Positions 7,376 to 33,276 of a stretch of DNA of 48,349 nucleotides are shown piece by piece (within the stretch, counting starts at the first letter, position 1; every line of letters starts with the position of its first letter). The position numbers were made by a program, and so were the translations under genes. Source of the DNA: a virus. The notes under the pieces are model-generated. The model was not told the DNA's origin and did not search any database. It saw only the letters and a list, made by a program, of their open reading frames with translations. The stretch is taken from IMG/VR virus record IMGVR_UViG_3300037110_000132; one strand, given 5' to 3'.

Positions 7376-7615
7376 TTGTCACCACTCAGGAAATGGGCTT
7401 TAAGAATCGTTACCGGTCTTGCCATCTCACTGGTTGCGTTGTTTGAACTAGCAAGGCTCTTCTATCATAGTCGTGTTTGGTTTCCTGATTCTATTGCTCG
7501 AAAAGGACTAAAGTTAAGTGTATATTGGCCCTATAGCTCAGCGGTTAGAGCAAGCGGCTCATCGGGTTTGATGAACGTGTTTATTGAACTCCAGCATATA
7601 ATCGCTGGGTCCTAG
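7376..7615 (+). CDS. Possible small membrane protein (TTG start); doubtful because it overlaps the tRNA at 7526
   Basis: Strong Shine-Dalgarno taaggaga 6 nt upstream of the TTG. Hydrophobic N-terminal helix. The 3' third overlaps the intron-containing tRNA. Confidence 0.25.
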   Translation: MSPLRKWALRIVTGLAISLVALFELARLFYHSRVWFPDSIARKGLKLSVYWPYSSAVRASGSSGLMNVFIELQHIIAGS

Positions 7616-7638
7616 GTTCGAATCCTAGTAGGGCCACC
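7526..7638 (+). tRNA. tRNA-Met/Ile (CAT) interrupted by a 37-nt insertion in the anticodon loop
   Basis: Acceptor ggcccta/tagggcc. D-arm gctc-agcggttag-gagc. Anticodon stem agcgg/tcgct spans 44 nt. Mature loop ctC|ATaa is obtained if the insert sits between nt 34 and 35. Confidence 0.65.
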
Positions 7639-8170
7639 AATTGATAATCGAAAGAGGATTGTGAAGTTCACCATGACAATTGGTGCATAAAAGATCGCAT
7701 TTGGCCGCCTCCATGAGAAGATTTTCCCAAGAATGGAATGCACAGTTATTATTATCAAGTTCGAATTCTTTAGTGGTTGGATTTTTGTGATGAAAACTCA
7801 AAACCGAATAGTTCTTATGATATCCACAAGAAATGCATGCGGATCCTGCTGACATGATTAGCTCAATTCTTCTTTTTCTACCAAAAGCGATTTGAATTTT
7901 CCAACTTCTTGATCGAATATTATTGTTACATTCTCTACACCAAGGGTATACTCTACCATCCGCTTTGGTTGGGAATTTGTCGGTTGGCTTCTTCAGATGA
8001 CATTGCGGACAAACTTTTCCCTCCGAATAGTCTGTCTCGTAACGCAGACTCTTCCCACTCTTGAATGGAATACAATCAAGACAAGCTTTCCGATTTCCCA
8101 GATTTCTGGGTTTCCCATCCACAGTGATCCAACTAGGGAATTCTTTTCCACATTTTATGCAATTTTTCAT
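7625..8170 (-). CDS. HNH homing endonuclease
   Basis: Motif HHKNP...KEFELDNNNC...W..L..KCDLLCTNCHGELH, with N-terminal CxxC zinc fingers. Confidence 0.7.
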   Translation of the reverse strand: MKNCIKCGKEFPSWITVDGKPRNLGNRKACLDCIPFKSGKSLRYETDYSEGKVCPQCHLKKPTDKFPTKADGRVYPWCRECNNNIRSRSWKIQIAFGRKRRIELIMSAGSACISCGYHKNYSVLSFHHKNPTTKEFELDNNNCAFHSWENLLMEAAKCDLLCTNCHGELHNPLSIINWWPY

Positions 8171-8251
8171 CTTGGCCTCTGTTTCATTATAGCGTAGCAG
8201 TTAGGGTAACCTTTGTGGATGTGGGGTAAGCTACAGGTTGATTTCACATAA

Positions 8252-8281
8252 TTGACAAATGCTGGGATTTCGTGCTATACT
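8252..8281 (+). promoter_or_regulatory. Strong sigma70 promoter TTGACA-18-TGcTATACT
   Basis: -35 TTGACA at 8252-8257. Extended -10 cgTGcTATACT at 8276-8281. A gaaagg Shine-Dalgarno and the ATG at 8308 follow. Confidence 0.6.
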
Positions 8282-8307
8282 TTGGTTCGGTTTTGAAAGG
8301 AACCAAC

Positions 8308-8607
8308 ATGGCATCTCTCATCAACAAACGTGAAATCATCGCAGCCCAGGTCGCCAGCCAGGGTGGATGCCGAATGCCACTGCTCATCGCTGCCATGATG
8401 CAAGATGGTAGAATGCGGACCGGTGACAAATCCCTGGTGGATATCACCGACCTGATCGAGGAAATGATCGTGGACGGGGATCTCGTGGAAGTGATCTACT
8501 TCCTCCCTCCCGAACTCACTGATTCCGAACAGCCTATATCGTTCCTCTTGCCGAAAGGCACGAGGGTTACAAGCTTGGACGCGATTTTGTCCAAGACCGC
8601 AAGCTAA
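8308..8607 (+). CDS. Hypothetical protein (GC-rich)
   Basis: In-frame ATG at 8308 has a better ribosome-binding site than the ORF start at 8272. Confidence 0.5.
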   Translation: MASLINKREIIAAQVASQGGCRMPLLIAAMMQDGRMRTGDKSLVDITDLIEEMIVDGDLVEVIYFLPPELTDSEQPISFLLPKGTRVTSLDAILSKTAS

Positions 8608-8989
8608 ATCTGATCTTTGATATTGCTGATGGGATTTTGAGGAATGGACCTCTGGGAATTGGACAGAGCTAAATAAACCTCGAGCCTTAATTCCGCTCTT
8701 CGTTAAGCCGCAAGGCGACGTTAAGAGTAGGCCGGGAACCGGTGAATCAGCACAAATCTTGGACCCCTCGCAAGGGGATGAAACCTTGCACCGGCCTTGG
8801 GAATAGGAGTTGCGAATCCCCCAAGCCGTTTGTCACTCATATTGGCTACCAATAGTGCAAGCTGGTAGATCTGGTATGACTAAACCTAGCTCACAAGGCG
8901 ACAGTGGTGGATACGATCAGAGGAAAGCCAATTCCAAGAATCTCTGAGGCCCCGAAAGGGGCCAAAGGGGTGTAACTGATCTTTAACAT

Positions 8990-9066
8990 GCGCCCATAAC
9001 TCAGTTGGTTAGAGTACCCGCCTTTTAAGCGGAAAGTCGCGGGTTCAAGTCCCGCTGGGCGCACCA
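8990..9066 (+). tRNA. tRNA-Lys (TTT)
   Basis: Acceptor gcgccca/tgggcgc. D-arm actc-agttggtta-gagt. Anticodon loop ctTTTaa. T-arm gcggg-ttcaagt-cccgc. CCA encoded. Confidence 0.8.
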
Positions 9067-9084
9067 GTTTCAACCTTCCTTCAT

Positions 9085-9948
9085 ATGAGAAATCTAATGA
9101 GTAAGCCGGAACTGCACTACAACATCGCTCAGCCGGTACTGCACTACAACATCGCTCATAAGGGTGTGGAACTGAAGTTCAGCGAGAAGCCCAATGAGGA
9201 GATTCTCCAACTCCTCAGCAGCAACAGATTCCGCTGGCATCCTACCAGGAAAATCTGGTTCGCCAAGCATAACGAGGCATCTGAATTGATCGCCCGACAA
9301 GTCATCGCCAAGTTCAACGAACCCAAGTTCAACGAACCCAAGTTCAACGAACCCAAGTTCAACGATGGTGATCAGGAATTCAGAAAGTCAGAAGTGGAGG
9401 CATTCCTAGGTTTGAAAGGCCATCCCACCTTCTTGGGAAACCTTAGGGATCGTTCCCTCAATATTCCCTATACCCTTCGAAAGATGCCCACCAAAATCGG
9501 GGCACGGCTAATGGGGATCTACAGGAAGAGCGACGTCCTGGAATTTCGGGAGAAGTGGAACATCCATATCAAATCTCTAAACAGGGAGGGGTCCATCTTC
9601 TTCAACGAGGATTTCTCCCCCTGCGGAATCATCAGGCATTCTGATGCTGCTCCCCGGAAGGAACCGGTCCTGCCAGCCTCCATGCTGCCTTCCACTCCTG
9701 ATCCCTTTATCCCCAAGGCCCTGGAACCCATCATCAGGCTGCTCCAGGAGAAGGATGAAGAGATCACTCATCTGCGGGGTGAACTGCAGAAGAGCCAGCA
9801 CAAATGTCTCCTGGTGGAACAGGATGCCCAGAAGTATCAAGAGTCGAACAAACTGTTCAATGATTTGGTCGCGGAGAATGCTCTGCTGAAGCAGCTCCAT
9901 GTTCAGCTCACCATCAAGCTGGATGCGATTAGGGACTCTCTGAAATAG
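9085..9948 (+). CDS. Hypothetical protein with tandem KFNEP pentapeptide repeats and a C-terminal coiled coil
   Basis: 287-aa ORF. N-terminal duplicated VLHYNIAQP segment. 15-bp unit aagttcaacgaaccc repeated four times. Confidence 0.55.
   Translation: MRNLMSKPELHYNIAQPVLHYNIAHKGVELKFSEKPNEEILQLLSSNRFRWHPTRKIWFAKHNEASELIARQVIAKFNEPKFNEPKFNEPKFNDGDQEFRKSEVEAFLGLKGHPTFLGNLRDRSLNIPYTLRKMPTKIGARLMGIYRKSDVLEFREKWNIHIKSLNREGSIFFNEDFSPCGIIRHSDAAPRKEPVLPASMLPSTPDPFIPKALEPIIRLLQEKDEEITHLRGELQKSQHKCLLVEQDAQKYQESNKLFNDLVAENALLKQLHVQLTIKLDAIRDSLK
9310..9369 (+). repeat. 15-bp tandem repeat x4 (aagttcaacgaaccc) inside the CDS
   Basis: Perfect direct repeats. Confidence 0.9.
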
Positions 9949-9972
9949 GCTGCTGTCGCTGACTATACCACT

Positions 9973-10245
9973 GTGATTCAGTTTCTCGCCAAGGCTTTAC
10001 TTATGCCTGATCAAATGATCGAAGACCTACGCGAAAAGCTCCTTCTGGAGTTACAGACGCTGCAAGAAGCCTTTAATCCCAAGGCTATGCTGTTCGACCA
10101 TAAAGAGAAGGACTCGAAAGAGCAGTACGAGTGGGTCCGCGAGTATAACGTCAACGAACGGCGTTTGGATCGAGTAGCCGGGATCAAACACTTCCTATCG
10201 GACCTCAGCAGGGAATCAGTAGGAGACTCTCATGAAAATGCTTGA
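9973..10245 (+). CDS. Hypothetical protein
   Basis: 90-aa ORF. Confidence 0.45.
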   Translation: MIQFLAKALLMPDQMIEDLREKLLLELQTLQEAFNPKAMLFDHKEKDSKEQYEWVREYNVNERRLDRVAGIKHFLSDLSRESVGDSHENA

Positions 10246-10705
10246 AATCTTCCCTATCAGTCTGCCAAGATATGCACGGAGGCTGTGTGAGAGGTATTGC
10301 TGGACCGAATTCCAGAAGAGGACCTCATTTCAGCCTAACTGTACCAATTATGAGTTTATGGCCTCTCTCCAAGAAAACGGTGACGTCAAGCTATCGGCAT
10401 ATTTCGATTACAACAGCCCTGCAAGAAGCTCGGTTAGCACCTGTCCAGGATCACCTGGACCCCATCTGGAGGAACCATGGAATCAAAACATGGACGATGG
10501 CTTCTGTCAATCTTCCGGTAGTATCGTTCTCGCAACTATCCAACCTTTCAATGAGCAGGAATTGGCAGAGATCATTGAGGCTGAGAAATTCCGTCTGGCT
10601 AAGATAGAATATTCCAAACGCAAGGATGAGGCACTAATCCTGGCAATCAAGCAAATTCAGGATGAAATGTTCGGTCCAATTGACCCTCCAATTGACAATT
10701 GTTAA
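10232..10705 (+). CDS. Hypothetical protein
   Basis: 157-aa ORF, preferred over the overlapping frame 10242-10607. Confidence 0.45.
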   Translation: MKMLEIFPISLPRYARRLCERYCWTEFQKRTSFQPNCTNYEFMASLQENGDVKLSAYFDYNSPARSSVSTCPGSPGPHLEEPWNQNMDDGFCQSSGSIVLATIQPFNEQELAEIIEAEKFRLAKIEYSKRKDEALILAIKQIQDEMFGPIDPPIDNC

Positions 10706-10770
10706 CTATGCAACCTGCCCGATGGAACACCACCGGGATCTTCAAAACCTCTCTTTACAAGGAGAATTCC

Positions 10771-11163
10771 ATGAACAAGTCCACCGAAATTAAGCGTGTG
10801 GAAGGCGTCATCCATCATCACATCCGCAACCAGGAACCCCTCCTTGATAAGGAAGGTAACTGCATCTGGGATGCGGATGGCAAGACCTACAAAGTGAAGA
10901 ACAACCCGATCGGCATCCTGGTCGCCAGCCACGAGAAGATCAACGGTGAGGACATCATCCACATCGGTTGGGCCAAGTGGCATCTGGACAGCAGCATGCC
11001 CTGGCTGATCTACGATGAGCAGAAGGGTTACAACAAGGCCGTGAACCGCATGCGGAATCATGCTCCGATGCCAAAACGGGATTTCGTGATTCCGGCCAAC
11101 GATCTCCAGGTCATCCTGGATCGTGCGGTCAAGTACTTCAAGATCGAGTCGGTTCAGGCTTAA
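10771..11163 (+). CDS. Hypothetical protein
   Basis: ATG at 10771 with a strong Shine-Dalgarno acaaggaga. The longer ORF starts at 10699. Confidence 0.55.
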   Translation: MNKSTEIKRVEGVIHHHIRNQEPLLDKEGNCIWDADGKTYKVKNNPIGILVASHEKINGEDIIHIGWAKWHLDSSMPWLIYDEQKGYNKAVNRMRNHAPMPKRDFVIPANDLQVILDRAVKYFKIESVQA

Positions 11164-11235
11164 GTCTTCAAGATACCTCTGGAGATTGGCTTATGCAGAG
11201 GGTAGCCTGATAGACCATGACTCAGGCAGTTTTAA

Positions 11236-11309
11236 GCTTCTATGGTGTAGCGGTAGCATAAGACCCTTCCAAGGTTAAGGTGTCGGATCATCCCCGACTA
11301 GAAGCTCCA
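11236..11309 (+). tRNA. tRNA-Gly (TCC)
   Basis: Acceptor gcttcta/tagaagc. Anticodon loop ctTCCaa. T-arm gtcgg-atcatcc-ccgac with an atypical T-loop. CCA encoded. Confidence 0.6.
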
Positions 11310-11325
11310 ATAGAAAGGTAATGAA

Positions 11326-11727
11326 ATGGCTCTTGAACGCAAAGGGACCTTCACTCTGCAGTCGGTGTTTGATCACATCGGCAGAGAGGACAAAATCTAT
11401 GAAGGTGATTCCATTCATATGGACAGCCTTCGTTATGAAGTGTTCCGAAATAACCCAGTCTGCGTGAAATGTGGTCTTAAGGGCCAGTATTTCGCGAAGG
11501 AACGAAATATTCTCCTTCGCGAAATACCAGGACAGAATCCTGATCGTTACCATTTCAATATGTATGGGGTGAACGAGAAGGGTGAAGAGATTTTGTTCAC
11601 CAAGGATCACATCATTCCTAGGTCGAAGGGTGGGAATAACGGAATTAAAAATATGCAGACAATGTGTTATCTCTGCAATCAGGAAAAAGCAGACGAGGTT
11701 GAGGTTGCTGATGTTAAAGAAGCCTAA
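11326..11727 (+). CDS. HNH endonuclease
   Basis: KDHIIPRSKGGNNGIKNMQTMCYLCNQEK HNH motif with an upstream CVKCG zinc finger. Confidence 0.7.
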   Translation: MALERKGTFTLQSVFDHIGREDKIYEGDSIHMDSLRYEVFRNNPVCVKCGLKGQYFAKERNILLREIPGQNPDRYHFNMYGVNEKGEEILFTKDHIIPRSKGGNNGIKNMQTMCYLCNQEKADEVEVADVKEA

Positions 11728-11857
11728 TGATCCGAAAGAAATCCAGGAAGACCCAATTGCTCCGGAGCCGCTCTGGGAGAAAATTGAAGTGTGGTTCTGG
11801 ATCGCTCTTCCCATTGCTCTTCTGATTATTGCAATGTATTTCAAGTTCAAGCACTAG
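11711..11857 (+). CDS. Possible small membrane protein (48 aa)
   Basis: ATG preceded by gaggttgagg. C-terminal hydrophobic helix WFWIALPIALLIIAMYF. Confidence 0.3.
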   Translation: MLKKPNDPKEIQEDPIAPEPLWEKIEVWFWIALPIALLIIAMYFKFKH

Positions 11858-11865
11858 GAGATTTC

Positions 11866-12426: not shown

Positions 12427-12521
12427 AATACTCTGGCCAATCTGTTTCAGTCTGATGGTCGTTGTCGATTCTATGGGCGAAAGAAAGAAAGGTATCTATC
12501 CTCAGCAATTGAATCAAACCG

Positions 12522-12905
12522 ATGTCTGATCCTTCTGCACTTCCCCGATGGGTGATCGAATGGATTTATCGTCGTGTTGAGCCTACCAAGGGCCAATGGC
12601 TGAATTTACTAAGGATCCGACCACTGAAAACCCCAACTGTGCTTTATCGGGGCCTCGAGTGGAGTTCCCGGACTTGGGAGACTCGTAGAGAGAACTATGG
12701 AGTGCATGAATCCTATAACTCATGGACTGGAAGTATCTGGATAGCCAAAGGATTCGGTGGTGCTTCCGCAAGGTTTGGGGTAGTTTTATCTAGGGAATTT
12801 TTGCCAGGGGAAGCCGCTGATATAGCCATTAACATGGAACAGGAATTTCTGGCCCCTCCAGGAAACTACAAGGTTAAGGTAGTAGAGAAATGGGGTTTCC
12901 GTTAG
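12522..12905 (+). CDS. Putative ADP-ribosyltransferase (R-S-E type), no leader
   Basis: Motifs VLYRGLEW, YNSWTGSIWIAKGFG and EQEFLAPPG. Confidence 0.5.
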   Translation: MSDPSALPRWVIEWIYRRVEPTKGQWLNLLRIRPLKTPTVLYRGLEWSSRTWETRRENYGVHESYNSWTGSIWIAKGFGGASARFGVVLSREFLPGEAADIAINMEQEFLAPPGNYKVKVVEKWGFR

Positions 12906-12940
12906 ACGAAATAATCAAGAGTTAAAATAAAGTAGGAAAT

Positions 12941-13080
12941 GCGCACGTGGCGGAAGTGGTAGACGCACTGGATTTATCGAAAGGCTCTAAGGTGAAAGAG
13001 CCTCTCCCATCGGGTCAATGACCCCCAGATAGGTTCCAGCGAGTAAAATCGTGAGGGTTCGAGTCCCTTCGAGCGCACCA
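12941..13080 (+). tRNA. Class II tRNA, probably Leu(TAG), interrupted by a ~55-nt insertion in the anticodon loop
   Basis: Acceptor gcgcacg/cgagcgc (one mismatch). Anticodon stem ctgga/tccag spans 62 nt. Variable-arm hairpin cga-gtaaaa-tcg. T-arm gaggg-ttcgagt-ccctt. CCA encoded. Loop ttT|AGgt is obtained if the insert sits between 34 and 35. Confidence 0.55.
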
Positions 13081-13098
13081 AATTTAAAACTGGACTAT

Positions 13099-20919: not shown

Positions 20920-20999
20920 GGGGTACAGGACTACACGGGGTGGTCACCTCCCTTGCACGGAGGATATTCAGAAGGGTTCGATACCCTTGTGCTCCACCA
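20920..20999 (+). tRNA. tRNA-Ala (TGC) with an unusual 8-nt variable region
   Basis: Acceptor ggggtac/gtgctcc (two GU pairs). Anticodon stem cctcc/ggagg with loop ctTGCac. T-arm aaggg-ttcgata-ccctt. CCA encoded. Confidence 0.55.
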
Positions 21000-22287: not shown

Positions 22288-22404
22288 AGGGGTATAGCTC
22301 AGTTGGTCAGAGCGTCTGGCTTATCACTTTCCATGAAGTTGGTGGTTCGTGCAAAGTATTCCACACCCAGAAGGTCGTAAGTTCGAGCCTTACTGCCCCT
22401 ACCA
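22288..22404 (+). tRNA. tRNA, probably Val(TAC), interrupted by a 40-nt insertion in the anticodon loop
   Basis: Acceptor aggggta/tgcccct. D-arm gctc-agttggtca-gagc. Perfect anticodon stem tctgg/ccaga spanning 47 nt. T-arm gtaag-ttcgagc-cttac. CCA encoded. Loop ctT|ACac is obtained if the insert sits between 34 and 35. Confidence 0.6.
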
Positions 22405-22546: not shown

Positions 22547-24469
22547 ATGGCATTAATGGATCGTTATCAGAATCGCCAGATCAGTTCCAAGAAAGAAGAA
22601 TTAACTCTACAGGAATACCTGGATCTCTGCAAAGCCGACCCAACCACCTACGCCAATGTAGCAGAGCGGATGCTAATGGCCATTGGTGAACCCGAAGTAA
22701 TCGATACTCACCTGACTGACAGGAATTCCAGGATCTTCGCTAACAAGATGATCAGGGTCTATCCCGCTTTCAAGGACTTTTATGGCATGGAAGAAGTGAT
22801 TGAGTCTATCGTCGCATATTTCCGACATGCTGCTCAGGGGTTGGAAGAGAAGAAACAGATCCTTTATCTTCTCGGTCCTGTCGGTGGTGGTAAGTCCTCC
22901 CTGGCCGAGGGCCTTAAGTATCTGCTCCAAAAGGTCCCGTTCTTTGCCATTAAGGGTTCTCCCGTCAATGAGTCACCCCTTGGGCTATTTGATGTGGTGA
23001 ACGATGCCAAGGCGTTAGAAGAGGAATATGGCATTCCCAGTCGGTATCTTGGTAGTATTTTGAGTCCTTGGGCGGTCAAGCGTCTGGAAGAGTTTGATGG
23101 TGATATCTCCAAGTTCAAGATCATCAAGCTTTTCCCTTCTACCTTGTCTCAGGTCGCTATCTCCAAGACGGAACCCGGAGATGAAAACAACCAGGATATT
23201 TCTTCACTGGTTGGCAAGGTTGACATCAGGAAGCTGGAAAAGTACAGCCAAAATGATACCGATGCTTATTCTTACTCCGGTGGTCTGTGCCTATCTAATC
23301 AGGGCATCTTGGAATTCGTTGAGATGTTCAAGGCTCCGATTAAAGTACTGCACCCTCTGCTGACTGCTACCCAAGAAGGAAACTACAAGGGAACTGAGGG
23401 CTTTGGTGCTATTCCGTTCAACGGTTTAGTCCTGGCTCACTCAAATGAAGCTGAGTGGCAGACGTTCAGAAATAACAAAAACAACGAAGCCTTCCTGGAC
23501 CGCATCTACATTGTCAAGGTTCCTTATAGCCTTCGTTTCACTGATGAAACTAGAATCTATCAGAAGCTGCTGGATAACTCTAGCTTGAGCGCAGCACCCT
23601 GCGCTCCTGATACCCTCAAGATGCTGGCCCAGTTCTCTGTCCTCTCTAGACTAAAGGTTCCAGAAAATTCCAGCGTCTTCAGTAAGATGAGGATCTATGA
23701 TGGTGAGAACCTCAAGGATATCGATCCCAAGGCAAAGAGCTATCAGGAATACAAGGACTTTGCTGGTGTGGATGAGGGAATGATCGGTCTGTCCACCCGG
23801 TTCGCCTTCAAGATTCTGTCCAAGGTGTTCAACTATGACCACAATGAGATCGCTGCCAATCCAGTCCATCTCATGTACATCCTGGAGACTCAGATCGGAC
23901 AGATGCAATTCCCGACTGCCACTGAGGACATGTATCGCAAGTACATCAAGGAGTACCTCTCACCCAAATACGCGGAATTCATTGGCAAAGAGATCCAGAC
24001 TGCATACCTCGAAAGCTATGGTGAGTATGGACAGAATATCTTCGATCGCTATGTGGTCTATGCTGACTTCTGGATCCAGGATCAGGAATTCAGAGATCCC
24101 AACACTGGCGAGATGCTGGACCGGGCTGCGCTCAACGAGGAACTGGAAAAGATCGAGAAACCAGCTGGTATCTCTAATCCGAAGGACTTCCGTAATGAGG
24201 TAGTCACATTCGCACTCAGAGCGAAAGCCAAGCACGAGGGCAAGAACCCTTTGTGGACCTCTTATGAGAAACTCCGTGCAGTAATCGAGAAGAAGATGTT
24301 CTCTAATACTGAGGAATTGCTCCCTGTCATTTCCTTCAACACCAAGGCAAGCGCGGACGATCAGAAGAAACACAAAGACTTCTTGGACCGGATGATCGCT
24401 AGGGGTTACACTGAGAAGCAAGTCCGTCTGCTGTGTGACTGGTACCTGCGCGTAAGGAAATCTTCATGA
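22547..24469 (+). CDS. prkA: PrkA/YeaG family serine protein kinase (AAA+ N-domain)
   Basis: 640 aa. The N-terminus aligns with E. coli YeaG (TLQEYL...YANAAERLLMAIGEP...YPAFEEFYGMEDAIEQIV...AAQGLEEKKQILYLLGPVGGGKSSLAE). Walker A motif GPVGGGKS. Confidence 0.85.
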   Translation: MALMDRYQNRQISSKKEELTLQEYLDLCKADPTTYANVAERMLMAIGEPEVIDTHLTDRNSRIFANKMIRVYPAFKDFYGMEEVIESIVAYFRHAAQGLEEKKQILYLLGPVGGGKSSLAEGLKYLLQKVPFFAIKGSPVNESPLGLFDVVNDAKALEEEYGIPSRYLGSILSPWAVKRLEEFDGDISKFKIIKLFPSTLSQVAISKTEPGDENNQDISSLVGKVDIRKLEKYSQNDTDAYSYSGGLCLSNQGILEFVEMFKAPIKVLHPLLTATQEGNYKGTEGFGAIPFNGLVLAHSNEAEWQTFRNNKNNEAFLDRIYIVKVPYSLRFTDETRIYQKLLDNSSLSAAPCAPDTLKMLAQFSVLSRLKVPENSSVFSKMRIYDGENLKDIDPKAKSYQEYKDFAGVDEGMIGLSTRFAFKILSKVFNYDHNEIAANPVHLMYILETQIGQMQFPTATEDMYRKYIKEYLSPKYAEFIGKEIQTAYLESYGEYGQNIFDRYVVYADFWIQDQEFRDPNTGEMLDRAALNEELEKIEKPAGISNPKDFRNEVVTFALRAKAKHEGKNPLWTSYEKLRAVIEKKMFSNTEELLPVISFNTKASADDQKKHKDFLDRMIARGYTEKQVRLLCDWYLRVRKSS

Positions 24470-25698
24470 TCATTGATCGAAGATCGGATAGCAAGCATAA
24501 AAGCTCCGTTAACCGAAGTAGATTCATCCAACGCTTTAAAGGCCAGATCAAGAAAGCTGTCTCTGATACAATCAACAAGGACAGCATCAAAGATCTGGCT
24601 GGCAAGAAGATTGGGATTTCCAATAGAAGCATCAAGGAACCACGATTCAGGACTGGGCCTGGAGGGATATCAGAGGATGTCCATCCAGGTAATGATAAAT
24701 ATCATTCAGGTGAAGAAGTAGAAAGGCCCTATGGCGATGATGGCATGGGATCTAGCGCCAGTCCTGATGGAGAGGGTATGGACGAATTCGTCTTCACCCT
24801 TTCTAGAGAAGAATTCCTGGATATCTTCTTTGAGGAACTGGCACTTCCTAATCTGACTAAGAAGTATTTGGCCAGTTTAAAGGAATTCAAGCGGGTAAGG
24901 GCTGGGATTAGTAATGCCGGAACTCCTAATAATATCAATCTCGTCCGGACTTTCAGGAGCGCCACAGGCCGAAGGGTAGCCATCGGTGGTCCTTATGCCA
25001 CTGAATTAGCAGAATTAGAGGAGAAACTAGCTGAAGTCACAGATGAAGAAGAATTCACATTCCTAACAGAAGAAATAGAGAGGGTCAGGACTCGGATTAG
25101 TCACATTCCCTGGATTGATACCTTCGACCTCCGGTATAATTATCATGATAAGGTTCCTCAGCCTTCGGCTCAGGCTGTTATGTTCTGCTTGATGGATGTA
25201 TCTGGATCAATGGACGAGGAGAAGAAGAACATCGCTAAGCGATTCTTCACCCTCTTATATCTGTTTTTGACTCGTACCTACGAGAAAACTGATATCGTCT
25301 TCATTCGCCATCATGTTCATGCCGAAGAAGTGGATGAGGATACTTTCTTCCATTCTCAGGAAACAGGTGGAACTATTGTTTCCTCAGCATTGAAGCTGAT
25401 GCTCCAAATCATCGAAGAGCGTTACAACAACGGTCAATGGAACATCTATGGTGCACAGGCTTCAGATGGTGACAATTGGTTCGAAGATTCCAATGGGTGT
25501 ATTCAGCTATTGGAAGATCAAATTCTTAAGTTGGTCCAGTATTTCGCGTATGTAGAGATTGCTGAGCGCCCACAAAGCTTGTGGGTTGAATATGAATCAA
25601 TCACGCCGAAATATGAAGGGCTGTTTGCGATCAGACGGATTAATAGCGCGGCTGATATCTATCCAGTGTTCTGTGATCTCTTTAAGAAGCACGAGTAA
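24466..25698 (+). CDS. yeaH: YeaH/YhbH (DUF444) vWA-like protein
   Basis: 410 aa. Stop/start overlap with prkA. MIDAS-type DVSGSMDE motif. Canonical partner of PrkA. Confidence 0.75.
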   Translation: MIIDRRSDSKHKSSVNRSRFIQRFKGQIKKAVSDTINKDSIKDLAGKKIGISNRSIKEPRFRTGPGGISEDVHPGNDKYHSGEEVERPYGDDGMGSSASPDGEGMDEFVFTLSREEFLDIFFEELALPNLTKKYLASLKEFKRVRAGISNAGTPNNINLVRTFRSATGRRVAIGGPYATELAELEEKLAEVTDEEEFTFLTEEIERVRTRISHIPWIDTFDLRYNYHDKVPQPSAQAVMFCLMDVSGSMDEEKKNIAKRFFTLLYLFLTRTYEKTDIVFIRHHVHAEEVDEDTFFHSQETGGTIVSSALKLMLQIIEERYNNGQWNIYGAQASDGDNWFEDSNGCIQLLEDQILKLVQYFAYVEIAERPQSLWVEYESITPKYEGLFAIRRINSAADIYPVFCDLFKKHE

Positions 25699-25700
25699 CT

Positions 25701-27224
25701 ATGCGACAGAAAAAGCCCAAGCTCCCAAAGCTCCCCACCCCTCTCCCCACCGGCTCTGAATGGAGCTTTGATTCCATTCAGGCTTTTGATGATGCATGCA
25801 AGAAGGTAGCGGATAGATTCTCATTGGATTCCTATCCTCACCAGCTTGAAATCATCAGTGCTGAGCAGATGATGGATGCCTATGCGAGCATTGGTATGCC
25901 AGTGTTCTATCATCACTGGTCTTTTGGTAAATCCTTCCTAGCCACGGAGAATAAATATAAACGTGGCTACATGGGCTTGGCATACGAGATCGTGATCAAC
26001 TCAGATCCCTGCATTGCCTACCTAATGGAAGAGAACACCCTGACAATGCAAGCACTCGTCATTGCCCATGCCGCATATGGTCATAATAGCTTTTTCAAGG
26101 GCAACCACTTGTTCAAGCAGTGGACCAGTCCAGATTCTATCATCGACTATCTGGTCTTCGCTAAGAATTTCATCACGGAATGTGAAGAAAAATATGGTCA
26201 AGAGACAGTAGAGAAGATGTTAGATGCTTGCCATGCCCTGATGAATCTTGGTGTGGATAGACACAGACGCGCTCCTAAGCTCTCAATGGTGAAAGAGAAG
26301 CTTCGTCAGAAGGAACGTGAGGAATATCTACAGTCACAGGTCAATGAGCTTTGGAAGACTTTACCTTTCCAGTCCAAGAAGGAAGAAGGAAATACAGAGA
26401 AGTTTCCTAAGGAACCAGAGGAGAACGTCCTCTATTTCATCGAGAAGAATGCTCCCCTCCTGGAACCCTGGCAACGAGAAATTATCAGGATTGTCCGTAA
26501 GATCGCACAATACTTCCACCCTCAGAAGCAAACTCAGCTAATGAACGAAGGGTGGGCATGTTTCTGGCACTATAAGATTCTGAACACATTATATGACGAT
26601 AATTTGGTCGGTGATGGGTTCATGCTTGAGTTCCTACAGTCCCATACAAATGTCTGTTATCAACCAGCCTATAGTAGCAAATGGTATTCGGGAATTAGTC
26701 CCTATGCCTTTGGTTTTGCAATGTGGCAAGATATTAAGCGGATTTGCGAGAAGCCAACAAAAGAGGATTCTGAATGGTTCCCTAGCATCGCAGGATCAGA
26801 CTGGCGTGAGACACTTGAGTTCGCTATGAACAATTTCAAGGATGAGAGTTTTGTCTCCCAGTATCTCTCTCCAAAGATGATGAGAGATTTCCATTTATTC
26901 TCTGTGCTAGACGATGATGAGGAAGAAGATCTCATTATCGGCCCAATCCATGATGAGGTTGGTTACTATGGATTGCGTCAGAGATTGTCGGATCAATACA
27001 ACCTGGGCAGTCGTGAACCAAATATTCAGGTTTGGAATCTGGATAAGCGTGGAGATCGGACTCTGACCCTGAGATATTTCAGCTACCATCGGAAACCCCT
27101 TTACAAAGATTTCATTGATGTTGTGAAATACACCGCTTATCTCTGGGGCTTCCCAGTTGCCCTGGAAGAGCAAGATGAAACGGGCTTCGTGGACTTCTTG
27201 GGGATGGAAACTCCTGAAATTTGA
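25701..27224 (+). CDS. spoVR: SpoVR/YcgB family protein
   Basis: 507 aa. Third member of the conserved prkA-yeaH-spoVR triad. Assignment rests on size, operon context and conserved blocks such as YHHWSFGKSF and EGWACFWHYKIL. Confidence 0.7.
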   Translation: MRQKKPKLPKLPTPLPTGSEWSFDSIQAFDDACKKVADRFSLDSYPHQLEIISAEQMMDAYASIGMPVFYHHWSFGKSFLATENKYKRGYMGLAYEIVINSDPCIAYLMEENTLTMQALVIAHAAYGHNSFFKGNHLFKQWTSPDSIIDYLVFAKNFITECEEKYGQETVEKMLDACHALMNLGVDRHRRAPKLSMVKEKLRQKEREEYLQSQVNELWKTLPFQSKKEEGNTEKFPKEPEENVLYFIEKNAPLLEPWQREIIRIVRKIAQYFHPQKQTQLMNEGWACFWHYKILNTLYDDNLVGDGFMLEFLQSHTNVCYQPAYSSKWYSGISPYAFGFAMWQDIKRICEKPTKEDSEWFPSIAGSDWRETLEFAMNNFKDESFVSQYLSPKMMRDFHLFSVLDDDEEEDLIIGPIHDEVGYYGLRQRLSDQYNLGSREPNIQVWNLDKRGDRTLTLRYFSYHRKPLYKDFIDVVKYTAYLWGFPVALEEQDETGFVDFLGMETPEI

Positions 27225-28010: not shown

Positions 28011-29467
28011 AGAATACTTGTGTTAGAAGTCGTGTTGTGGTATAATTTTTTCGGATAAGGCTAACGCCGAATCCCGCTCCCCCGCCAGGGTGCGACTGGT
28101 GTAATCCTGGTGGGTGTAGGTCCGGGGGAGTCAACAAATCTTCCCCGGACCACCGAGATCCTTGACAACTTGGCATGCAGAGATTGTAAGATTAGGATCA
28201 CGAGCCTATTCAAAGCCTTGCGTTGAAGCTATAAACCGACCTGCGAGGGTCTGTTCTTGGTCTGAGTCGATGGAGGGGGCAACTCCTGAGAAATTGGCAA
28301 CATGATACGCGGAGACTAAAAAGGATCTTACTTGTGGAGATATAATCGCCACCTGGACCTAAAAAATCTAGAAATGGATTTGCGTTTCACCGCAACGTGG
28401 GCGGTGCAACTTCCGGTATAAGCTAGCGATAGTGAAGCTGGAGGCCATGATGGTTGAGGGAGAGCCATCTGCTAGGCTACGGTTTGTTGGCTTGTTGCCG
28501 TAGTAAAAGATAGCCTAAAACCAACACCCATTCGGTCTTGCTAACCGGGTGGTTTCGATGGGACCGGCATGAAGGCCGATCACAGCCAGTCATCAGAGCG
28601 CCCTTAGAGCCTGTGGCAAAGAGCCTGAAAGTTAGGCCGCGCCGGTAAAGCAGGATTGGGTGCAATTTCGGAAAAGAACAACTTGGAATCGCCGGGAAAC
28701 CGGAGTCCGCAAAGAGGCCGATGGACTGAGATACTGGTGATGCCCCTGGAAGCATCAAAGGGAATGGAGCGTGGAGCATAAGGGAGATCTAATACAAGCC
28801 CGAAAGCTGTGAAACAATCCATCTGATCTAGACTCACCCTTTGACGCTGGATGACTCCTGATAGATTAGGTGCATCTCAATTTGATATCAGGATAAGCGA
28901 AGAATTCTGGACCCAGCGGATGAATTCGTCGAAAACCCCCTATGCAGTGACATGGGATGGTTGCAGGTATGAGAAACCTGATACTTTCAGTTGAGAAAGA
29001 CTGGATTACTTACACGTGGTAAAGAACGTGAGGTCCTGGACACGCTTGAATTTGCTAAGGGCGTGGATGCGGTGAGCCAGGATGCTGGGGAGAGGGTACC
29101 AGCAGGGGTGAAGTTTCGCATTGACTCCTTAGTCCTTCTTAGGATAAGCTGCGAGATAGGGTGATGATTTCCCTAGACGAATGGACGAGGAATAAGACGC
29201 TGAGTCCAGAAACTATAATCCGGTGCTCGATCTTCCGCCGTGAGTGGAGATCCGGTAATTGAGACACCCTCCTCGTAAATAGGGAATCTCCGGTGACAAT
29301 GAGAACTAACGCCATCAGGAAACATCGTCCAGTTCTACAGTCAGCTGCTACACCGGTAGTTTCGCCTCATAAGGTGCATGCTGGTTACGCTGCGAAATGT
29401 TGACGTCTTGACCGAGGGCATGAGGTCATGCAAATTGAGGGGGAGCCTAAAAACTCCCCCTCAATAT
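28011..29467. ncRNA. Candidate large structured non-coding RNA (1.45 kb ORF-free region)
   Basis: No ORF of 60 aa or more on the + strand, in an otherwise gene-dense window. Contains a 9-bp perfect hairpin ggtccgggg/ccccggacc (28119-28151), a hairpin tgatgc/gcatca (28735-28754) and several GNRA-type tetraloop hairpins. Confidence 0.3.
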
Positions 29468-30805
29468 TTATATATGAACGAGTGGAGCAAATCTATCTTG
29501 TCCGTCATAATATTCAGTAAACCCAAGTTCTTTAGCTCTCTTTATAAGAGTAGCCTTATCCTCATTAGCTCCTCTTAACTGCAAATCTCTATAAGTCTCG
29601 CTGGCAAACAAAACATACCAAGGGCGCTTGGAAGCTTTTAGATTCTCATAGATAAAACATTCCACCACAAATTTTTTTATCTTGATCTTGATTGGTAGTT
29701 TCTTGCCTCTAGGCTTAATATAGTTTTCAGATTCTCCAATGAAACCCCCAGGCCATTCTCCATTGATAACTGCTCCATTAATGAGTTTTATCCCATCGAA
29801 CCCAACTGAGAACCAACTCCATATTAGTTCGATTGCAGCGTTCTCAAATTCGCATTGAATTCCATTTGGTAATTCATACCAACCATCTACTTCTTTGTAT
29901 CCATAATCACCCTTTGTGAATTTCTGTAATCCCAGAGGATCTTTCGGCATATTGTTGGTTTCTAGGGTCTTCCCGGTTAGTGCATGCACTGCTTTTGCGA
30001 AAGGCCCTCTTAATTGTCCTGACACTTTATGATATAGCTCAAATTCGTCTTCTAATTTATATTTGTTGTTCAATGCTTTCTGAAGAGGAAATGCCATTTC
30101 ATGATATTTATTGTCAAAATGATCCCAAATGCTCCCATTATGATGGCAGACATCATAAGCATGGTCTATGGCGATTACCTTTTCTATTAAACTGTTTGCG
30201 GATAACAACCTCTTATATCCTGGTACCACCTGCAAGTACCAAGGATCTTTCTCTCCTCCCATGGACAAGTATTCATGGACAGTCTCACAAAATAGTAATC
30301 CCTTGTTTCCCAAAAGTTTTAATTGGGCTTTTATATTATTATCCTGAATGTTCGCTCGTTCTTCTTGGATTTCCTTAGCCTTTTCAGGGTCTTTGGTATA
30401 TAGAACCGGAGACAGATCAGGTAAAGGTTTAATAGTATTTTTATCAAATAATAATTCGTAATTTGGGAACACTTTAGAGACTTTGGCTAAACCTCTACGA
30501 CGTTTCTCTTCTAGTCTTTCCGTTATTTCCTTTGTAGCACATTCAGTATGTTGCATCGCATCTTTTAATTCATCAATTGCTCTCCAATAAACCGCTTGCT
30601 TGAAATTCTCCAAAAGATCCCGATGAAGGTAATCAATCAATTTCTCTTCTGCATCTTTGACGTAAGACTCTAGGTCAATATCTAGTTCTTTAGCCCTATG
30701 AGTAACTAAAGATAAAGCGTAAAAATCGTACAAACACAAAATCGGGTCCTTCGGAATCTCGTAGGACCGAGAAGATGCAATTTTAGCCTTCAGATATAAT
30801 TTCAC
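29468..30805 (-). CDS. Hypothetical protein (445 aa) with the N-terminal leader MKLYLKAKIASS
   Basis: Minus strand, AT-rich. N-terminus matches the leader family. Confidence 0.6.
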   Translation of the reverse strand: MKLYLKAKIASSRSYEIPKDPILCLYDFYALSLVTHRAKELDIDLESYVKDAEEKLIDYLHRDLLENFKQAVYWRAIDELKDAMQHTECATKEITERLEEKRRRGLAKVSKVFPNYELLFDKNTIKPLPDLSPVLYTKDPEKAKEIQEERANIQDNNIKAQLKLLGNKGLLFCETVHEYLSMGGEKDPWYLQVVPGYKRLLSANSLIEKVIAIDHAYDVCHHNGSIWDHFDNKYHEMAFPLQKALNNKYKLEDEFELYHKVSGQLRGPFAKAVHALTGKTLETNNMPKDPLGLQKFTKGDYGYKEVDGWYELPNGIQCEFENAAIELIWSWFSVGFDGIKLINGAVINGEWPGGFIGESENYIKPRGKKLPIKIKIKKFVVECFIYENLKASKRPWYVLFASETYRDLQLRGANEDKATLIKRAKELGFTEYYDGQDRFAPLVHI

Positions 30806-30979
30806 AAGTTCCTCTAAATTTCATTTTAACATTTGAGTGATATACTTGGATAAGGAGGTCAGATTTATGGATTTCATTGAGAAGCGTAAACACAAACATT
30901 TTAGACTCCTCTTCATTAGCTTCCATGATTTATGGATTAGACATATCAAACCAGATATTTACTCGGCTTTCTCTGATCA

Positions 30980-32023
30980 CTAAATCTTTTTCTTTCGTGG
31001 ATTCTTTTCGTGTTGTCCAGCCCAAAGTTCATCAAAGATCTTCTCGATTCTGCCAGTAACTAATAGATCTAGGAATTCTCTCTTTGAGCTATTTTTAATA
31101 TCAAATTGGAAAGTATCACAAGGTCTATGATCACTATTATTCCATTTGTTGTATTCACACTGGAAATGATCGGGGTCAAGGATAGCAAGAGACAGATTGC
31201 CACCTTTATTGGGTAAATCAAAGCTCCAGCCGGGGTCGCTATTCCAGGTTTTATGGGGTGTCCCACCACCGAATTTTTGAGATAATTTTTCACCCAATTT
31301 CTTCATTTCCCTTTTGATTAGTGCATCAATTTGGAGGCCCTCTTGCCCTCCCCACTCTCCGAATAACTTACAAATTTCCACAGGGTAGGAACCGCCTTTA
31401 AGCAGATATTCCTTCTGGTGGAATCTCACAATATGATCCAGGATCTCATCCGGGAGGTCCGACATAGCAATACCAATTTGGTCGGGTGTGACGGTAGTCT
31501 TTAGGATCACCCCCAGAGAATCTGGGTCCCGACCCACAATAGAGAAGGTGCCTGCAAACTGTTCAGCAATTTCTGGGTTTGAACTCCAAGATTGCACCTT
31601 GAGGGTCTTATAGATCCCAGTACTCCCTACTTGAGGATCTTTGATACCCAATTTCTTCATGAAAGGAGCACCATTGATGGATTTGAAACCTAAGCCTCTA
31701 TAGAGGACTATTGGCTGGGTTGGGCAGAAGCGTTCGAAATAGGGAAAGATGTCCTTGTCAACGATCTTGCCTGCGTTGTTGTTATATCGATTTAGTTCTT
31801 CTGCGGCCCAAGTAGGGATTTTGTTATCTCTTAGATAATTTTCATAATTTTCTCTGATTTGGCTCTGGACCTTGCGATATTGACGATCAATTTTTTCCGT
31901 CTTGGAATTTTCATCCCAACTGTTGACTCCCCGTGCTCGCTCCTCGTCATTGACCCTGATGTACTCCTCCCTCAATTTAGTGAGTTTATCACGTAGAGGA
32001 CCAGCTATCATGGTTAGTTTCAT
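30980..32023 (-). CDS. Putative ADP-ribosyltransferase (R-S-E type), 347 aa
   Basis: Motifs VLYRGLGF, VQSWSSNPEIAEQFA and HQKEYLLKGG (Q-x-E). N-terminus MKLTMIAGPL is weakly leader-like. Confidence 0.55.
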   Translation of the reverse strand: MKLTMIAGPLRDKLTKLREEYIRVNDEERARGVNSWDENSKTEKIDRQYRKVQSQIRENYENYLRDNKIPTWAAEELNRYNNNAGKIVDKDIFPYFERFCPTQPIVLYRGLGFKSINGAPFMKKLGIKDPQVGSTGIYKTLKVQSWSSNPEIAEQFAGTFSIVGRDPDSLGVILKTTVTPDQIGIAMSDLPDEILDHIVRFHQKEYLLKGGSYPVEICKLFGEWGGQEGLQIDALIKREMKKLGEKLSQKFGGGTPHKTWNSDPGWSFDLPNKGGNLSLAILDPDHFQCEYNKWNNSDHRPCDTFQFDIKNSSKREFLDLLVTGRIEKIFDELWAGQHEKNPRKKKI

Positions 32024-32401
32024 ACAATCATCCCATTTAATTTTAACCTGAATGGATGGAGTTAATATTTAATAAATTCAGGTTATAATTAAAACACTGG
32101 GATTTAGGCTAGTTGGCAAACCTGAGGACTCTGACTCCTCCATCCTCCGTTCAAACCGGAGAGTCCCAACCAAAACGAGGGGTTCATGTGGCCCATAAAT
32201 CAACTCCCAAATTACACCTCCATTGAACCAACGAAATCCACAAAGGTCATTATTCCTGTTGGCAAGGTGGAGAAAGCGAATTGCCAGTCTTTTAATCCGG
32301 ATAGTCTTATTGGCCTCATCATTGATATTTGGGGTTAAAATGAAAAAGATCAAAATTACCGCTATCGGGCACACTACCTGACCGACGAGGACTTTGCGAC
32401 G

Positions 32402-32662
32402 ATGCAACTGGAAATGATGGCGAATCCGGAAATGGGCGATGTGATTGAAAATACGGGCGGTCTCAGAAAGCTGAGGCAACCGGATCCCAAGCGAGGGAAA
32501 GGGAAACGCGGCGGTCTGCGGGTGATCTACTACTGGTGGGAATCGGGTCGGCAGTTCTGGCTGTTCACCCTCTATAACAAGGATGAGGTCAGTGACCTGA
32601 CCGCCCAGGAGCGCAAGGCTTTCAAGGGAATGCTGAAGCGGGAACTTGAGGTGCGACGATGA
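32402..32662 (+). CDS. Type II toxin, RelE/HigB superfamily
   Basis: GGLRKLR...GKGKRGGLRVIYYW...LFTLYNKDEVSDLT signature. GC-rich. 4-bp overlap with the downstream antitoxin. Confidence 0.6.
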   Translation: MQLEMMANPEMGDVIENTGGLRKLRQPDPKRGKGKRGGLRVIYYWWESGRQFWLFTLYNKDEVSDLTAQERKAFKGMLKRELEVRR

Positions 32663-33012
32663 AGAAGCGGAATCTGTTCGAGGAAATCCAGGAGGGTTTC
32701 GAGGCCTTGGCCGAGGCGAGGGCTGGGAAGCTAACCTTGCGCACCCATCGCGTGGAGATGGCTGCCGTGTCTGAGGTAACTCCCGGCGAAGTGCTTGCTC
32801 TGCGTGAGAAGCTGAACCTGTCGCGTGCCGTGTTCGCCCGCTATCTGCGAACCAACCCCCGGACCGTCGAGAACTGGGAACAGGGTCGGGTCCATCCCAA
32901 CGCCCAAGCCAGCCTATTATTGCAGAAAAGCAGAAGACCATCTTTGGGATTAGAATCCCTTTTTTGGTGGTATTCCTGCGAAATCGAAATTGAGGACGAT
33001 TTATCCCTCTAA
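32659..33012 (+). CDS. HTH (XRE/HigA-like) antitoxin
   Basis: Helix-turn-helix LSRAVFARYLRTNPRTVENWEQGR. Translationally coupled to the upstream toxin. Confidence 0.6.
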   Translation: MKKRNLFEEIQEGFEALAEARAGKLTLRTHRVEMAAVSEVTPGEVLALREKLNLSRAVFARYLRTNPRTVENWEQGRVHPNAQASLLLQKSRRPSLGLESLFWWYSCEIEIEDDLSL

Positions 33013-33018
33013 TACCCT

Positions 33019-33094
33019 GGGTGCGTGGGAAAGTGGTTAATCCGCTAGCTTGTCACGCTAGAGAACGCCAGTTCGAAACTGGTCGCACCCGCCA
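33019..33094 (+). tRNA. tRNA-Asp (GTC)
   Basis: Acceptor gggtgcg/cgcaccc. Anticodon stem ctagc/gctag with loop ttGTCac. T-arm gccag-ttcgaaa-ctggt. CCA encoded. Confidence 0.8.
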
Positions 33095-33130
33095 TTGACA
33101 CACAATAAGAAGGAGTTAAAAGCATGTAAA

Positions 33131-33276
33131 CTTCCTATGGCGGATTGGTAGACGCAGCGGACTTTTCGGGGATGGAGAGAAACATCCCCACCATATCGTG
33201 AGGTCTTGAGGGACCCACACAGGAAAAATCCGCCGCCCGAAAAGGCGTTCCGGTTCGACTCCGGATAGGAAGACCA
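33131..33276 (+). tRNA. Class II tRNA, probably Leu(TAA), interrupted by a ~60-nt insertion in the anticodon loop
   Basis: Perfect acceptor cttccta/taggaag. Perfect anticodon stem gcgga/tccgc spanning 67 nt. Variable-arm hairpin cgcc-cgaaaa-ggcg. T-arm tccgg-ttcgact-ccgga. CCA encoded. Loop ctT|AAaa is obtained if the insert sits between 34 and 35. Confidence 0.6.

Follow-up and report, generated by a model that had tools for sequence, protein, structure and literature searches.

Introns in bacterial tRNA genes are, in the textbook account, self-splicing group I ribozymes, and protein-dependent tRNA splicing is regarded as an archaeal and eukaryotic trait. The best-known example, which interrupts the tRNA-Leu(UAA) gene in cyanobacteria and plastids and belongs to group I, sits between nucleotides 34 and 35 of the anticodon loop (34/35), is about 200 nt or more in length and self-splices by means of a conserved core. 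Archaeal tRNA introns with a bulge-helix-bulge (BHB) motif also occupy non-canonical positions, and transposition of such introns is known in Thermoproteales. In phage T4, an anticodon loop cut by the host nuclease PrrC is healed by T4 Pnkp and sealed by Rnl1. The closest described system is found in Lak megaphages, which carry unexplained "enigmatic" tRNA introns (Devoto et al. 2019, PMC6784885); in the literature on short phage tRNA introns this report was the sole precedent that we found. Here we analyze a viral contig of 48,349 nt (IMG/VR record IMGVR_UViG_3300037110_000132, an entire JGI metagenome contig, hereafter the window) in which four tRNA genes are interrupted within the anticodon loop by inserts of 37-60 nt. 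A preliminary description, made from the letters alone, had placed these inserts at 34/35 and had listed a new class of mini-intron, small self-cleaving ribozymes and disruption of tRNA function as explanations.

With default settings ARAGORN called 17 tRNAs in the window and none of the four interrupted genes; when introns were allowed (-i0,300), all four were called where the preliminary description had put them, with inserts of 37, 55, 40 and 60 nt (Table 1). The background of such calls is low, since 40 dinucleotide shuffles together with the reversed window yielded two intron-containing tRNAs, or about 0.05 per window against the four observed. The Rfam tRNA model matched three of the genes above its gathering threshold (22288-22401 at 59.2 bits, 7527-7636 at 55.9 bits and, with lax filters only, 12941-13077 at 37.1 bits) and gave no match to the fourth, at 33131-33276. 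ARAGORN labelled this fourth gene Phe(aaa), yet its class II body fits Leu(taa). When the inserts (7561-7597, 12976-13030, 22323-22362 and 33165-33224) were deleted in silico, each gene folded into a canonical cloverleaf with U33, a purine at position 37, A73 and an encoded CCA, the sole blemishes being one A.A mismatch in the acceptor stem of Leu-TAG and one G.U pair in the anticodon stem of Met. All seven loop bases are kept around each insert, and the four bodies are as clean as those of uninterrupted tRNAs. Canonical cloverleaves and invariant bases, as expected of functional tRNA genes, are therefore restored on removal, and the earlier view of the inserts as discrete intervening sequences in otherwise intact genes is borne out. 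We consider it likely that the inserts are genuine intervening sequences in functional tRNA genes. Because default tRNA finders skip all four, the tRNA repertoires of phages are probably undercounted.

Table 1. Interrupted tRNA genes of the window, their inserts, the block shared by two inserts, and an adjacent operon
Feature	Position	Strand	Details
tRNA-Met(CAT), interrupted	7527-7639	+	Exons 7527-7560 and 7598-7639, CCA encoded; ARAGORN -i; Rfam tRNA 55.9 bits; cloverleaf
Met insert, 37 nt	7561-7597	+	Between nucleotides 34 and 35; ATC, 12-bp hairpin 7564-7591, CAGCAT
Shared block, copy 1, CATCGGGT(N3)ATGA	7560-7574	+	Pattern count in the window
tRNA-Leu(TAG), class II, interrupted	12941-13080	+	ARAGORN -i; Rfam tRNA 37.1 bits (lax filters); cloverleaf
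Leu-TAG insert, 55 nt	12976-13030	+	ATC, hairpin 1 12979-13006, hairpin 2 13012-13024, tail CCAGAT; minimum free energy -18.9, z -2.5
Shared block, copy 2, CATCGGGT(N2)ATGA	13008-13021	+	Begins the 3' module of the Leu-TAG insert
tRNA-Val(TAC), interrupted	22288-22404	+	ARAGORN -i; Rfam tRNA 59.2 bits; cloverleaf
Val insert, 40 nt	22323-22362	+	ATC, hairpin 22326-22357 with loop GUUGGUGG, tail ATTCC
tRNA-Leu(TAA), class II, interrupted	33131-33276	+	ARAGORN -i; cloverleaf as Leu-TAA; orthologous body in L376
Leu-TAA insert, 60 nt	33165-33224	+	TTC, hairpin 1 33168-33189, hairpin 2 33198-33218, tail ACAGGA; minimum free energy -23.9, z -2.5
PrkA / DUF444 / SpoVR (yeaG-yeaH-ycgB-like) operon	22547-27224		81-85% identity to chromosomal genes of Dechloromonas- and Azonexus-like bacteria

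Short repeats at the junctions leave each splice site ambiguous by 1-2 nt when a gene is taken alone. The Met gene permits insertion at 34/35, 35/36 or 36/37 and the Leu-TAG gene anywhere from 33/34 to 35/36; the Val gene permits 34/35 or 35/36, while 33/34 would yield a CAC anticodon. In the gene at 33131-33276, an insert at 34/35 gives the anticodon TAA and one at 35/36 gives TTA, and the loop CT-TAA-AA is obtained only with the insert after nucleotide 34. The sole site that gives an anticodon consistent with the body in all four genes is thus 34/35; site 35/36 would work for all of them only if 33131-33276 were read as a TTA ochre suppressor, and the long open reading frames (ORFs) of the window, taken under the standard code, appear free of recoding. 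A35 stands at the 3' junction of all four genes, and GGCTC|ATAATCGC is an example of the exon-exon joint that splicing would produce. Outside the window (other loci are given here as L numbers), a phage tRNA-Lys(UUU) on L108, with a body close to that of E. coli tRNA-Lys(UUU), has a 39-nt insert from which the loop can be restored only at 34/35 (CTT|ATCC...CAAG|TTAA), a unique solution for L108/L309. The tRNA-Arg(TCT) of L100 permits 33/34 or 34/35. Of two interrupted genes on L109, one is best read at 33/34 and the second may be at 36/37. The single site shared by the window genes and the unique solution in L108 uphold the earlier placement, and together these data support 34/35 as the position of the plain-hairpin inserts defined below, though not as a universal one.

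The inserts resemble one another in build as well as in position. Three begin with ATC, as had been reported, and the fourth with TTC; each contains one or two hairpins with z-scores of -1.6 to -2.5, preceded in every case by exactly three unpaired bases. The hairpin of the Met insert (minimum free energy -8.9, z -1.6) includes four G.U pairs, and the antisense strand folds with only -0.9. A block of the form CATCGGGT(N2-3)ATGA occurs exactly twice in the window against 0.02 expected, which confirms the earlier observation that two of the inserts have a block in common and supports a relationship among the inserts. When the relatives described below are included, the common build reads: anticodon stem, Y32-U33-N34, a single-stranded spacer of 3 nt (usually AUC or UUC, hereafter WUC), one or two hairpins, 0-6 unpaired nt, and exon nucleotides 35-38. 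In the minimum free energy folds of 22 inserts, the hairpin begins at insert base 4, after three unpaired bases, in 16. Owing to G.U pairs, 17 of the 22 form a more stable hairpin on the sense than on the antisense strand (Wilcoxon p=0.002; the mean difference is -2.8 kcal/mol). Among inserts found without a search for WTC (the DNA form of WUC), the four window genes and L270b (CTC|ATC...|ATAA) start with this triplet and others start with CCT, TTT, ATA, GAG or AAT; WUC is therefore a trait of a subfamily and not a law. Pairing of the insert loops with the split anticodon loop, as a splint, was considered and dropped, as the summed best complementarity (98) was not enriched over shuffles (98.7; p=0.61).

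Relatives of these genes were not readily found by sequence similarity. In megablast and blastn searches of GenBank phages, the region had no match apart from that of the Met 5' exon to T4-like tRNA-Met/Ile genes that have no intron. An exact 17-mer taken from the tRNA-Val gene returned from IMG/VR chance matches in a coding gene only, the loop of the Val insert used as a key (GAAGTTGGTGGTT...GTTCRANYC) returned three chance matches, and the protein neighbours at 33322-33996 and 36932-39043 led to no useful relatives. The adjacent PrkA gene was rejected as an anchor, being host-derived with its closest homologs chromosomal, and none of 80 IMG/VR loci had DNA similarity upstream of it. The search that succeeded used a structural DNA pattern consisting of a D arm, six bases, YTNWTC, a gap of 38-68 nt and a T loop. 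It recovered both class I genes of the window and led to interrupted tRNAs on IMG/VR contigs as long as 415 kb and to more in JGI metagenomes. A class II version detected two interrupted tRNA-Leu genes, in L372 (Leu-TAA) and L376 (Leu-CAA); the gap in the IMG/VR class II scan was too short to recover the Leu genes of the window itself. In GTDB bacterial genomes the structural pattern found no such gene except one tRNA of the L101 family, from a rumen huge phage, on a contig of a metagenome-assembled genome (L357). Many matches, both of the WTC pattern and of a version that omitted WTC, were of other kinds. Giant-virus-like contigs contributed 37/38 introns of eukaryote type (Ile-TAT, Tyr-GTA), and there were introns of archaea, recognized through the GTDB scan, and partial tRNA duplications; once these were excluded, two phage-type classes were left.

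The first class, with plain hairpins in inserts of 24-60 nt, is represented in L100 (Arg-TCT), L108/L309 (Lys-TTT), L101/L113/L251/L314/L357, L109 (two genes), L261, L097/L238, L268/L304, L318 (Ala-TGC), L265, L270 (two genes), L299 (Asn-GTT), L302/L313 (Phe-GAA), L213 and L226 (both Ile-GAT), L126, L208, L227, L372 and L376. The second (L134, L139, L187, L200 and L218) has the build of the Lak megaphage introns, in which the insert contains a tRNA-like minihelix with a T arm. For the plain-hairpin class, the pattern scans added to the window genes about 20 interrupted tRNAs on contigs of large phages, with at least 10 anticodon types among them and Rfam tRNA scores of 46-60 bits. On the longer contigs (40-415 kb; L100, L101/L314/L357, both genes of L109, L261, both genes of L270, L213/L226, L372 and L376), the interrupted genes lie within bacterial-type tRNA arrays that include a class II tRNA-Tyr; where enough flank is present, an array usually has one or two of them amid normal bacterial-type tRNAs. 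By the measure of these scans, short hairpin inserts appear to be widespread in large phages.

Comparison of related copies indicates that exons and inserts evolve in different ways. On the metagenome contig L268, a tRNA-Thr-like gene carries a homolog of the Val insert; the 8-nt loop and its flanks are identical, and four of the 11 hairpin pairs are changed on both sides while 100% remain paired. Controls in which the register was slid gave no such pairs in five of six cases and one pair at +2. L213 and L226 show differences at 3 of 75 exon positions and at 9 of 24 insert positions, mostly in a compensatory manner, and compensatory substitutions have kept the acceptor and T stems intact in the interrupted tRNA of the L101 family. 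For the window genes themselves, exon covariation comes from the Leu ortholog in L376 only. This gene has the same Leu body as 33131-33276, an identical anticodon stem and a near-identical variable arm, and at the same site it carries an insert of 43 nt with unrelated sequence. The conservation of exons while the inserts diverge with compensatory changes in their hairpins argues for removal at the RNA level. It fits a situation in which the tRNAs would be under purifying selection and the inserts fast-evolving, structure-constrained and replaceable, and it does not fit dead genes. The presence of related modules in different tRNAs of one genome, and of different inserts at an orthologous site, suggests that the elements may move between tRNA genes.

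An alternative is that the inserts are never removed. A small mobile DNA hairpin element would then settle in anticodon loops and leave inactive tRNAs, which might be young pseudogenes or have another role, for example as decoys that draw off the anticodon nucleases of the host. Phages can often do without their tRNAs, the occurrence of related modules in three tRNAs of the window points to recent spread, and hairpins are equally suited as recognition sites in single-stranded DNA; this explanation would also account for the lack of splicing machinery in the window and beside the other examples. Such elements, however, would have to preserve seven loop bases at each insertion and leave bodies indistinguishable in quality from those of uninterrupted tRNAs, whereas diverged phages maintain the tRNA stems by compensatory change and let the inserts evolve about nine times faster. 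A transposon needs two ends, and most inserts have a single hairpin. Furthermore, no insert copies lie outside tRNAs in the window, where blastn-short with the four inserts returned only self matches and chance matches of at most 14 nt. We regard permanent insertion as unlikely. Dispersed repeats of the REP, PATE or MITE type were rejected on similar grounds, with no further copies in the window and no repeat family that includes the inserts.

The preliminary description had also raised the possibility of small ribozymes, which would excise themselves by self-cleavage or self-splicing, possibly followed by a ligase that seals the 2',3'-cyclic phosphate and 5'-OH ends. Hairpins that co-vary on the transcribed strand and a conserved AUC/UUC at the 5' junction would be compatible with such an RNA. 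Small ribozymes of another kind, theta ribozymes, are known beside phage tRNAs (PMC10879173), and in L134 a sub-threshold twister-P1 match (2610-2661; 34.7 bits, E 5e-4) lies immediately 3' of a phage tRNA-Glu. The covariance-model check that had been suggested for the inserts matched no ribozyme model. Rfam gave no ribozyme match anywhere in the window (E<=1), in 33100-33300 (E<=10, noise only) or at nine other loci, and at permissive thresholds in the window and 13 other loci no ribozyme or intron family fell over any mini-intron. Apart from WUC, the enlarged loop shows no conservation between subfamilies, some inserts are only 24-27 nt long, and the two cuts needed would have to come from the one hairpin that most inserts possess. 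Self-excision is, in our estimation, improbable.

Somewhat more doubtful still is the idea of introns of the archaeal or eukaryal BHB type, cut by a phage-borne EndA-like endonuclease and sealed by RtcB. Archaeal introns, too, are found outside the canonical site and are able to pass from one tRNA gene to another, RtcB is common among bacteria and present in large phages, and the WTC pattern caught many archaeal interrupted tRNAs (Bathyarchaeia, Woesearchaeota, Desulfurococcales), with a BHB motif in one (L347). A strict 3-4-3 BHB search that restores a 17-nt arm nevertheless found nothing in 12 of 13 phage examples, with a script of limited sensitivity, since among five archaeal controls only one yielded a convincing BHB; the single match, in Leu-TAG, had marginal helices and gave the wrong anticodon, TAT. 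No EndA domain was seen among the 52 ORFs of the window or 88 ORFs adjoining interrupted tRNAs elsewhere, and the context is bacterial, with a class II tRNA-Tyr and a PrkA operon that shares 81-85% identity with genes of Rhodocyclales.

Decay of a group I or group II intron is a very remote prospect, effectively refuted as a splicing mechanism: an insert at the site of the classic tRNA-Leu(UAA) intron, with one of the four hosts a tRNA-Leu(UAA), and the interruption of a phage tRNA-Met by a genuine group II intron within its anticodon loop (L104) would be in its favour, but inserts of 24-60 nt are far below any catalytic core, remnants would not splice although the exons are under constraint, and the hairpins are maintained by covariation and are not decaying. 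As the preliminary description had held, the window inserts (37-60 nt) are far too short for group I introns; Rfam gave no match to the group I core (RF00028, Intron_gpI) in the window at E<=1 or in 33100-33300 at E<=10, and neither RF00028 nor RF00029 gave a signal in the window. The L104 intron, at about 4318-4835 of a 268-kb phage contig, lacks an ORF and scores 47 bits with RF00029 (GTGAG...AC); its detection indicates that the tools are able to see such elements.

Our preferred explanation, which we would give about an even chance, is that the inserts are mini-introns of a loose family that reside in the anticodon loops of tRNA-rich, mostly large phages and are removed by protein enzymes that cut and ligate. 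It starts from the anatomy of the genes, the position of the inserts, their occurrence in other phage contigs, the conservation of the exons and the strand-specific co-varying hairpins. In this proposal, the whole interrupted gene would first be transcribed. An endonuclease would then make two cuts in the enlarged loop, 3 nt after and 4 nt before the anticodon stem, the 5' cut being additionally marked by WUC just upstream of the hairpin. The halves would finally be sealed by an RNA ligase of the anticodon-loop repair type (Rnl1 or Rnl2 with polynucleotide kinase, or RtcB), which would restore the 7-nt loop, and the elements themselves would be mobile between tRNA genes. RNase E sites, with a single-strand cut 5' of A/U-U upstream of a hairpin, have a loose resemblance to the 5' junction and are a weak fit. 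In large phages, Rnl1, Rnl2 and RtcB ligases and a kinase/phosphatase for tRNA repair are common (PMC7824862), which makes the sealing half plausible.

Several points weigh against this proposal. Splicing, catalysis by protein and the identity of the enzymes are all our inferences. Pfam, PHROGs and NCBIfam revealed neither an RNA ligase nor a polynucleotide kinase or splicing endonuclease among the 52 window ORFs, and none was seen among the 88 ORFs next to interrupted tRNAs elsewhere; the window covers 48 kb, and the remainder of the phage genome lies outside it. The 3' junction has no sequence signature, so that a ruler mechanism has to be assumed. The WTC start of most of the added examples was imposed by the search pattern, and several metagenome examples are on short contigs of unestablished origin. 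Lastly, with phage tRNAs often dispensable, recently disrupted genes could still look intact.

If the proposal is nevertheless taken further, phages may run a third tRNA-splicing pathway beside those of group I introns and BHB/EndA, with WUC-marked hairpin mini-introns, a ruler-type nuclease, resealing by a repair ligase, and mobile introns; we offer this tentatively, as somewhat short of an even prospect. The nuclease would then be either phage-encoded or a co-opted host RNase, and the introns might time the supply of phage tRNAs or shield it from host anticodon nucleases. Inserts below ribozyme size at one anticodon phosphodiester would require a cut-and-rejoin activity not yet described in bacterial viruses, which may be assembled from the tRNA-repair enzymes of large phages. 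The four window genes are compact substrates of 113-146 nt and the wider set supplies natural variants, so that the question of splicing is directly testable in vitro.

The window, which assembles from the reads of SRR11596275 as well, is strongly biased in strand, with nearly all ORFs and every tRNA on the plus strand. Searches of Pfam, PHROGs and NCBIfam revealed genes of phage type, among them several for HNH endonucleases, one for a dCMP deaminase and one of a phage non-structural protein family, along with acquired cellular genes: the PrkA/DUF444/SpoVR operon, an SPFH protein, an aspartate decarboxylase and a vault-shoulder-like protein. The operon appears to be a stress-response module that was recently taken up from a host, and it offers a clue to the host. 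The window PrkA is 81-85% identical to Rhodocyclales-like chromosomal PrkA, its nearest homologs lie in ordinary bacterial neighbourhoods, and the window tRNA-Tyr is of the bacterial class II type by ARAGORN; the window is therefore from a tRNA-rich phage of a bacterium, and to judge by these genes the host is probably a betaproteobacterium. The vault-like ORF (703 aa, 36932-39043) has Major Vault Protein shoulder and repeat domains (PF11978, 8.7e-25) and a relative of 48% identity on a 215-kb IMG/VR contig (L096). On the minus strand, 29468-32941 is a block of low GC content (0.40 against about 0.47) with three ORFs of 445, 347 and 287 aa that have no Pfam match, and in this mainly plus-strand contig it may be an inserted island. 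A tRNA-Gln(CTG) at 32098-32172 lies on the opposite strand within the span of the third of these ORFs. The ORF at 9085-9948, just 3' of tRNA-Lys, contains perfect tandem repeats (27 nt x2 at 9104-9157 and 15 nt x4 at 9308-9365).

Other RNAs of the window are also unusual. A tRNA at 4618-4686, directly upstream of tRNA-Cys, was recognized by the Rfam model only (51 bits) and missed by ARAGORN; the gene does not encode a CCA end, and the anticodon arm appears to be truncated or aberrant. The tRNA-His(GTG) at 44706-44793 (88 nt) has a class-II-like variable arm of about 16 nt with a GTC/GAC stem, which is unusual for His, and the tRNA-Ala(TGC) at 20920-20999 (80 nt) has an enlarged, odd D arm and keeps the G3.U70 pair. 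At 3717-3801 there is a tRNA-like remnant with an acceptor-like 5' strand, a hairpin with AATCATCG as its 8-nt loop, a helix that resembles a T arm and has a loop of 19 nt, and CCACCA at the 3' end; it was considered as a fifth interrupted gene, with an insert in the T loop, and rejected when deletions of 9-13 nt gave no tRNA call. Elsewhere, a skipping-rope RNA (44.6 bits) lies within the phage tRNA array of L226 at 7873-7972. A 102-nt tRNA-like gene recurs in IMG/VR contigs (L099, L102, L103, L105, L107, L111, L112 and L315), with normal acceptor, D and T arms and an aberrant anticodon region (GGAACCTCTTCAYGGTGAAGGACCAAATGCCAGAGGG...) that the mini-intron model does not fit. Competibacter genomes (L333, L339, L342, L345, L354-L356 and L359) have uninterrupted tRNAs with the anticodon loop CUCAUCA and C37, a loop that the tRNA-Met of L104 may share.

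The window inserts can be set beside several known systems. With group I tRNA introns they have in common a bacterial-type tRNA, the anticodon loop and the 34/35 phosphodiester, with U34 before the insert in three of the four genes; the gene at 33131-33276 has its insert after U34 of a tRNA-Leu(UAA), exactly the group I position, although position alone does not define the family. Group I introns are, in contrast, at least about 200 nt long with a catalytic core, and the inserts of 37-60 nt match no such model. Archaeal BHB introns are likewise short, occur at several positions and apparently spread between tRNA genes, and they are removed by protein enzymes that cut and ligate; the window differs in having no BHB motif or EndA, in its bacterial host, and in the geometry of 34/35, WUC spacer and hairpin. 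The intervening sequences of 23S rRNA, removed by RNase III, resemble the inserts as short hairpins in a structural RNA gene that are excised by a host nuclease, but there the rRNA fragments stay unjoined, whereas a tRNA split at its anticodon would be useless without ligation. That ligation half has its counterpart in T4 repair and the tRNA-repair sets of jumbo phages (PMC7824862), whose enzymes reseal broken anticodon loops beside position 34; T4-type repair mends damage and removes no sequence, and the 48-kb contig has no ligase gene.

The nearest likeness is to the Lak megaphage introns (PMC6784885), which are also short, non-group-I inserts in the anticodon loops of phage tRNAs with neither an Rfam match nor a known splicing mechanism, and which are conserved across related phages. 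They measure 79-114 nt, with a 5' hairpin followed by a tRNA-like minihelix (an acceptor-like stem and a GGTTCGAATCC T arm; their Table S6), and were placed at 37/38 by tRNAscan; the window inserts are plain hairpins with an AUC/UUC start, lack a T arm (GGTTCRAnYC) and lie at 34/35. The window inserts thus share with the Lak type the location in the anticodon loop and the lack of an Rfam assignment, and do not have its minihelix. Inserts with such a minihelix were seen at L134 4219-4339, L139 809-928, L187 9373-9498, L200 7013-7132 and L218 447-569, and in two of them, L134 and L139, NCCA stands between the minihelix and the 3' exon. Such an arrangement suggests that Lak-like introns could be excised by RNase P and RNase Z, with ligatable 3'-OH and 5'-P ends. 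The claim of a new class accordingly needs to be narrowed, as short phage tRNA introns had a precedent in 2019, but the Lak introns are longer and built differently. The window elements form a structurally distinct, shorter class at another position of the loop, possibly with a new mechanism.

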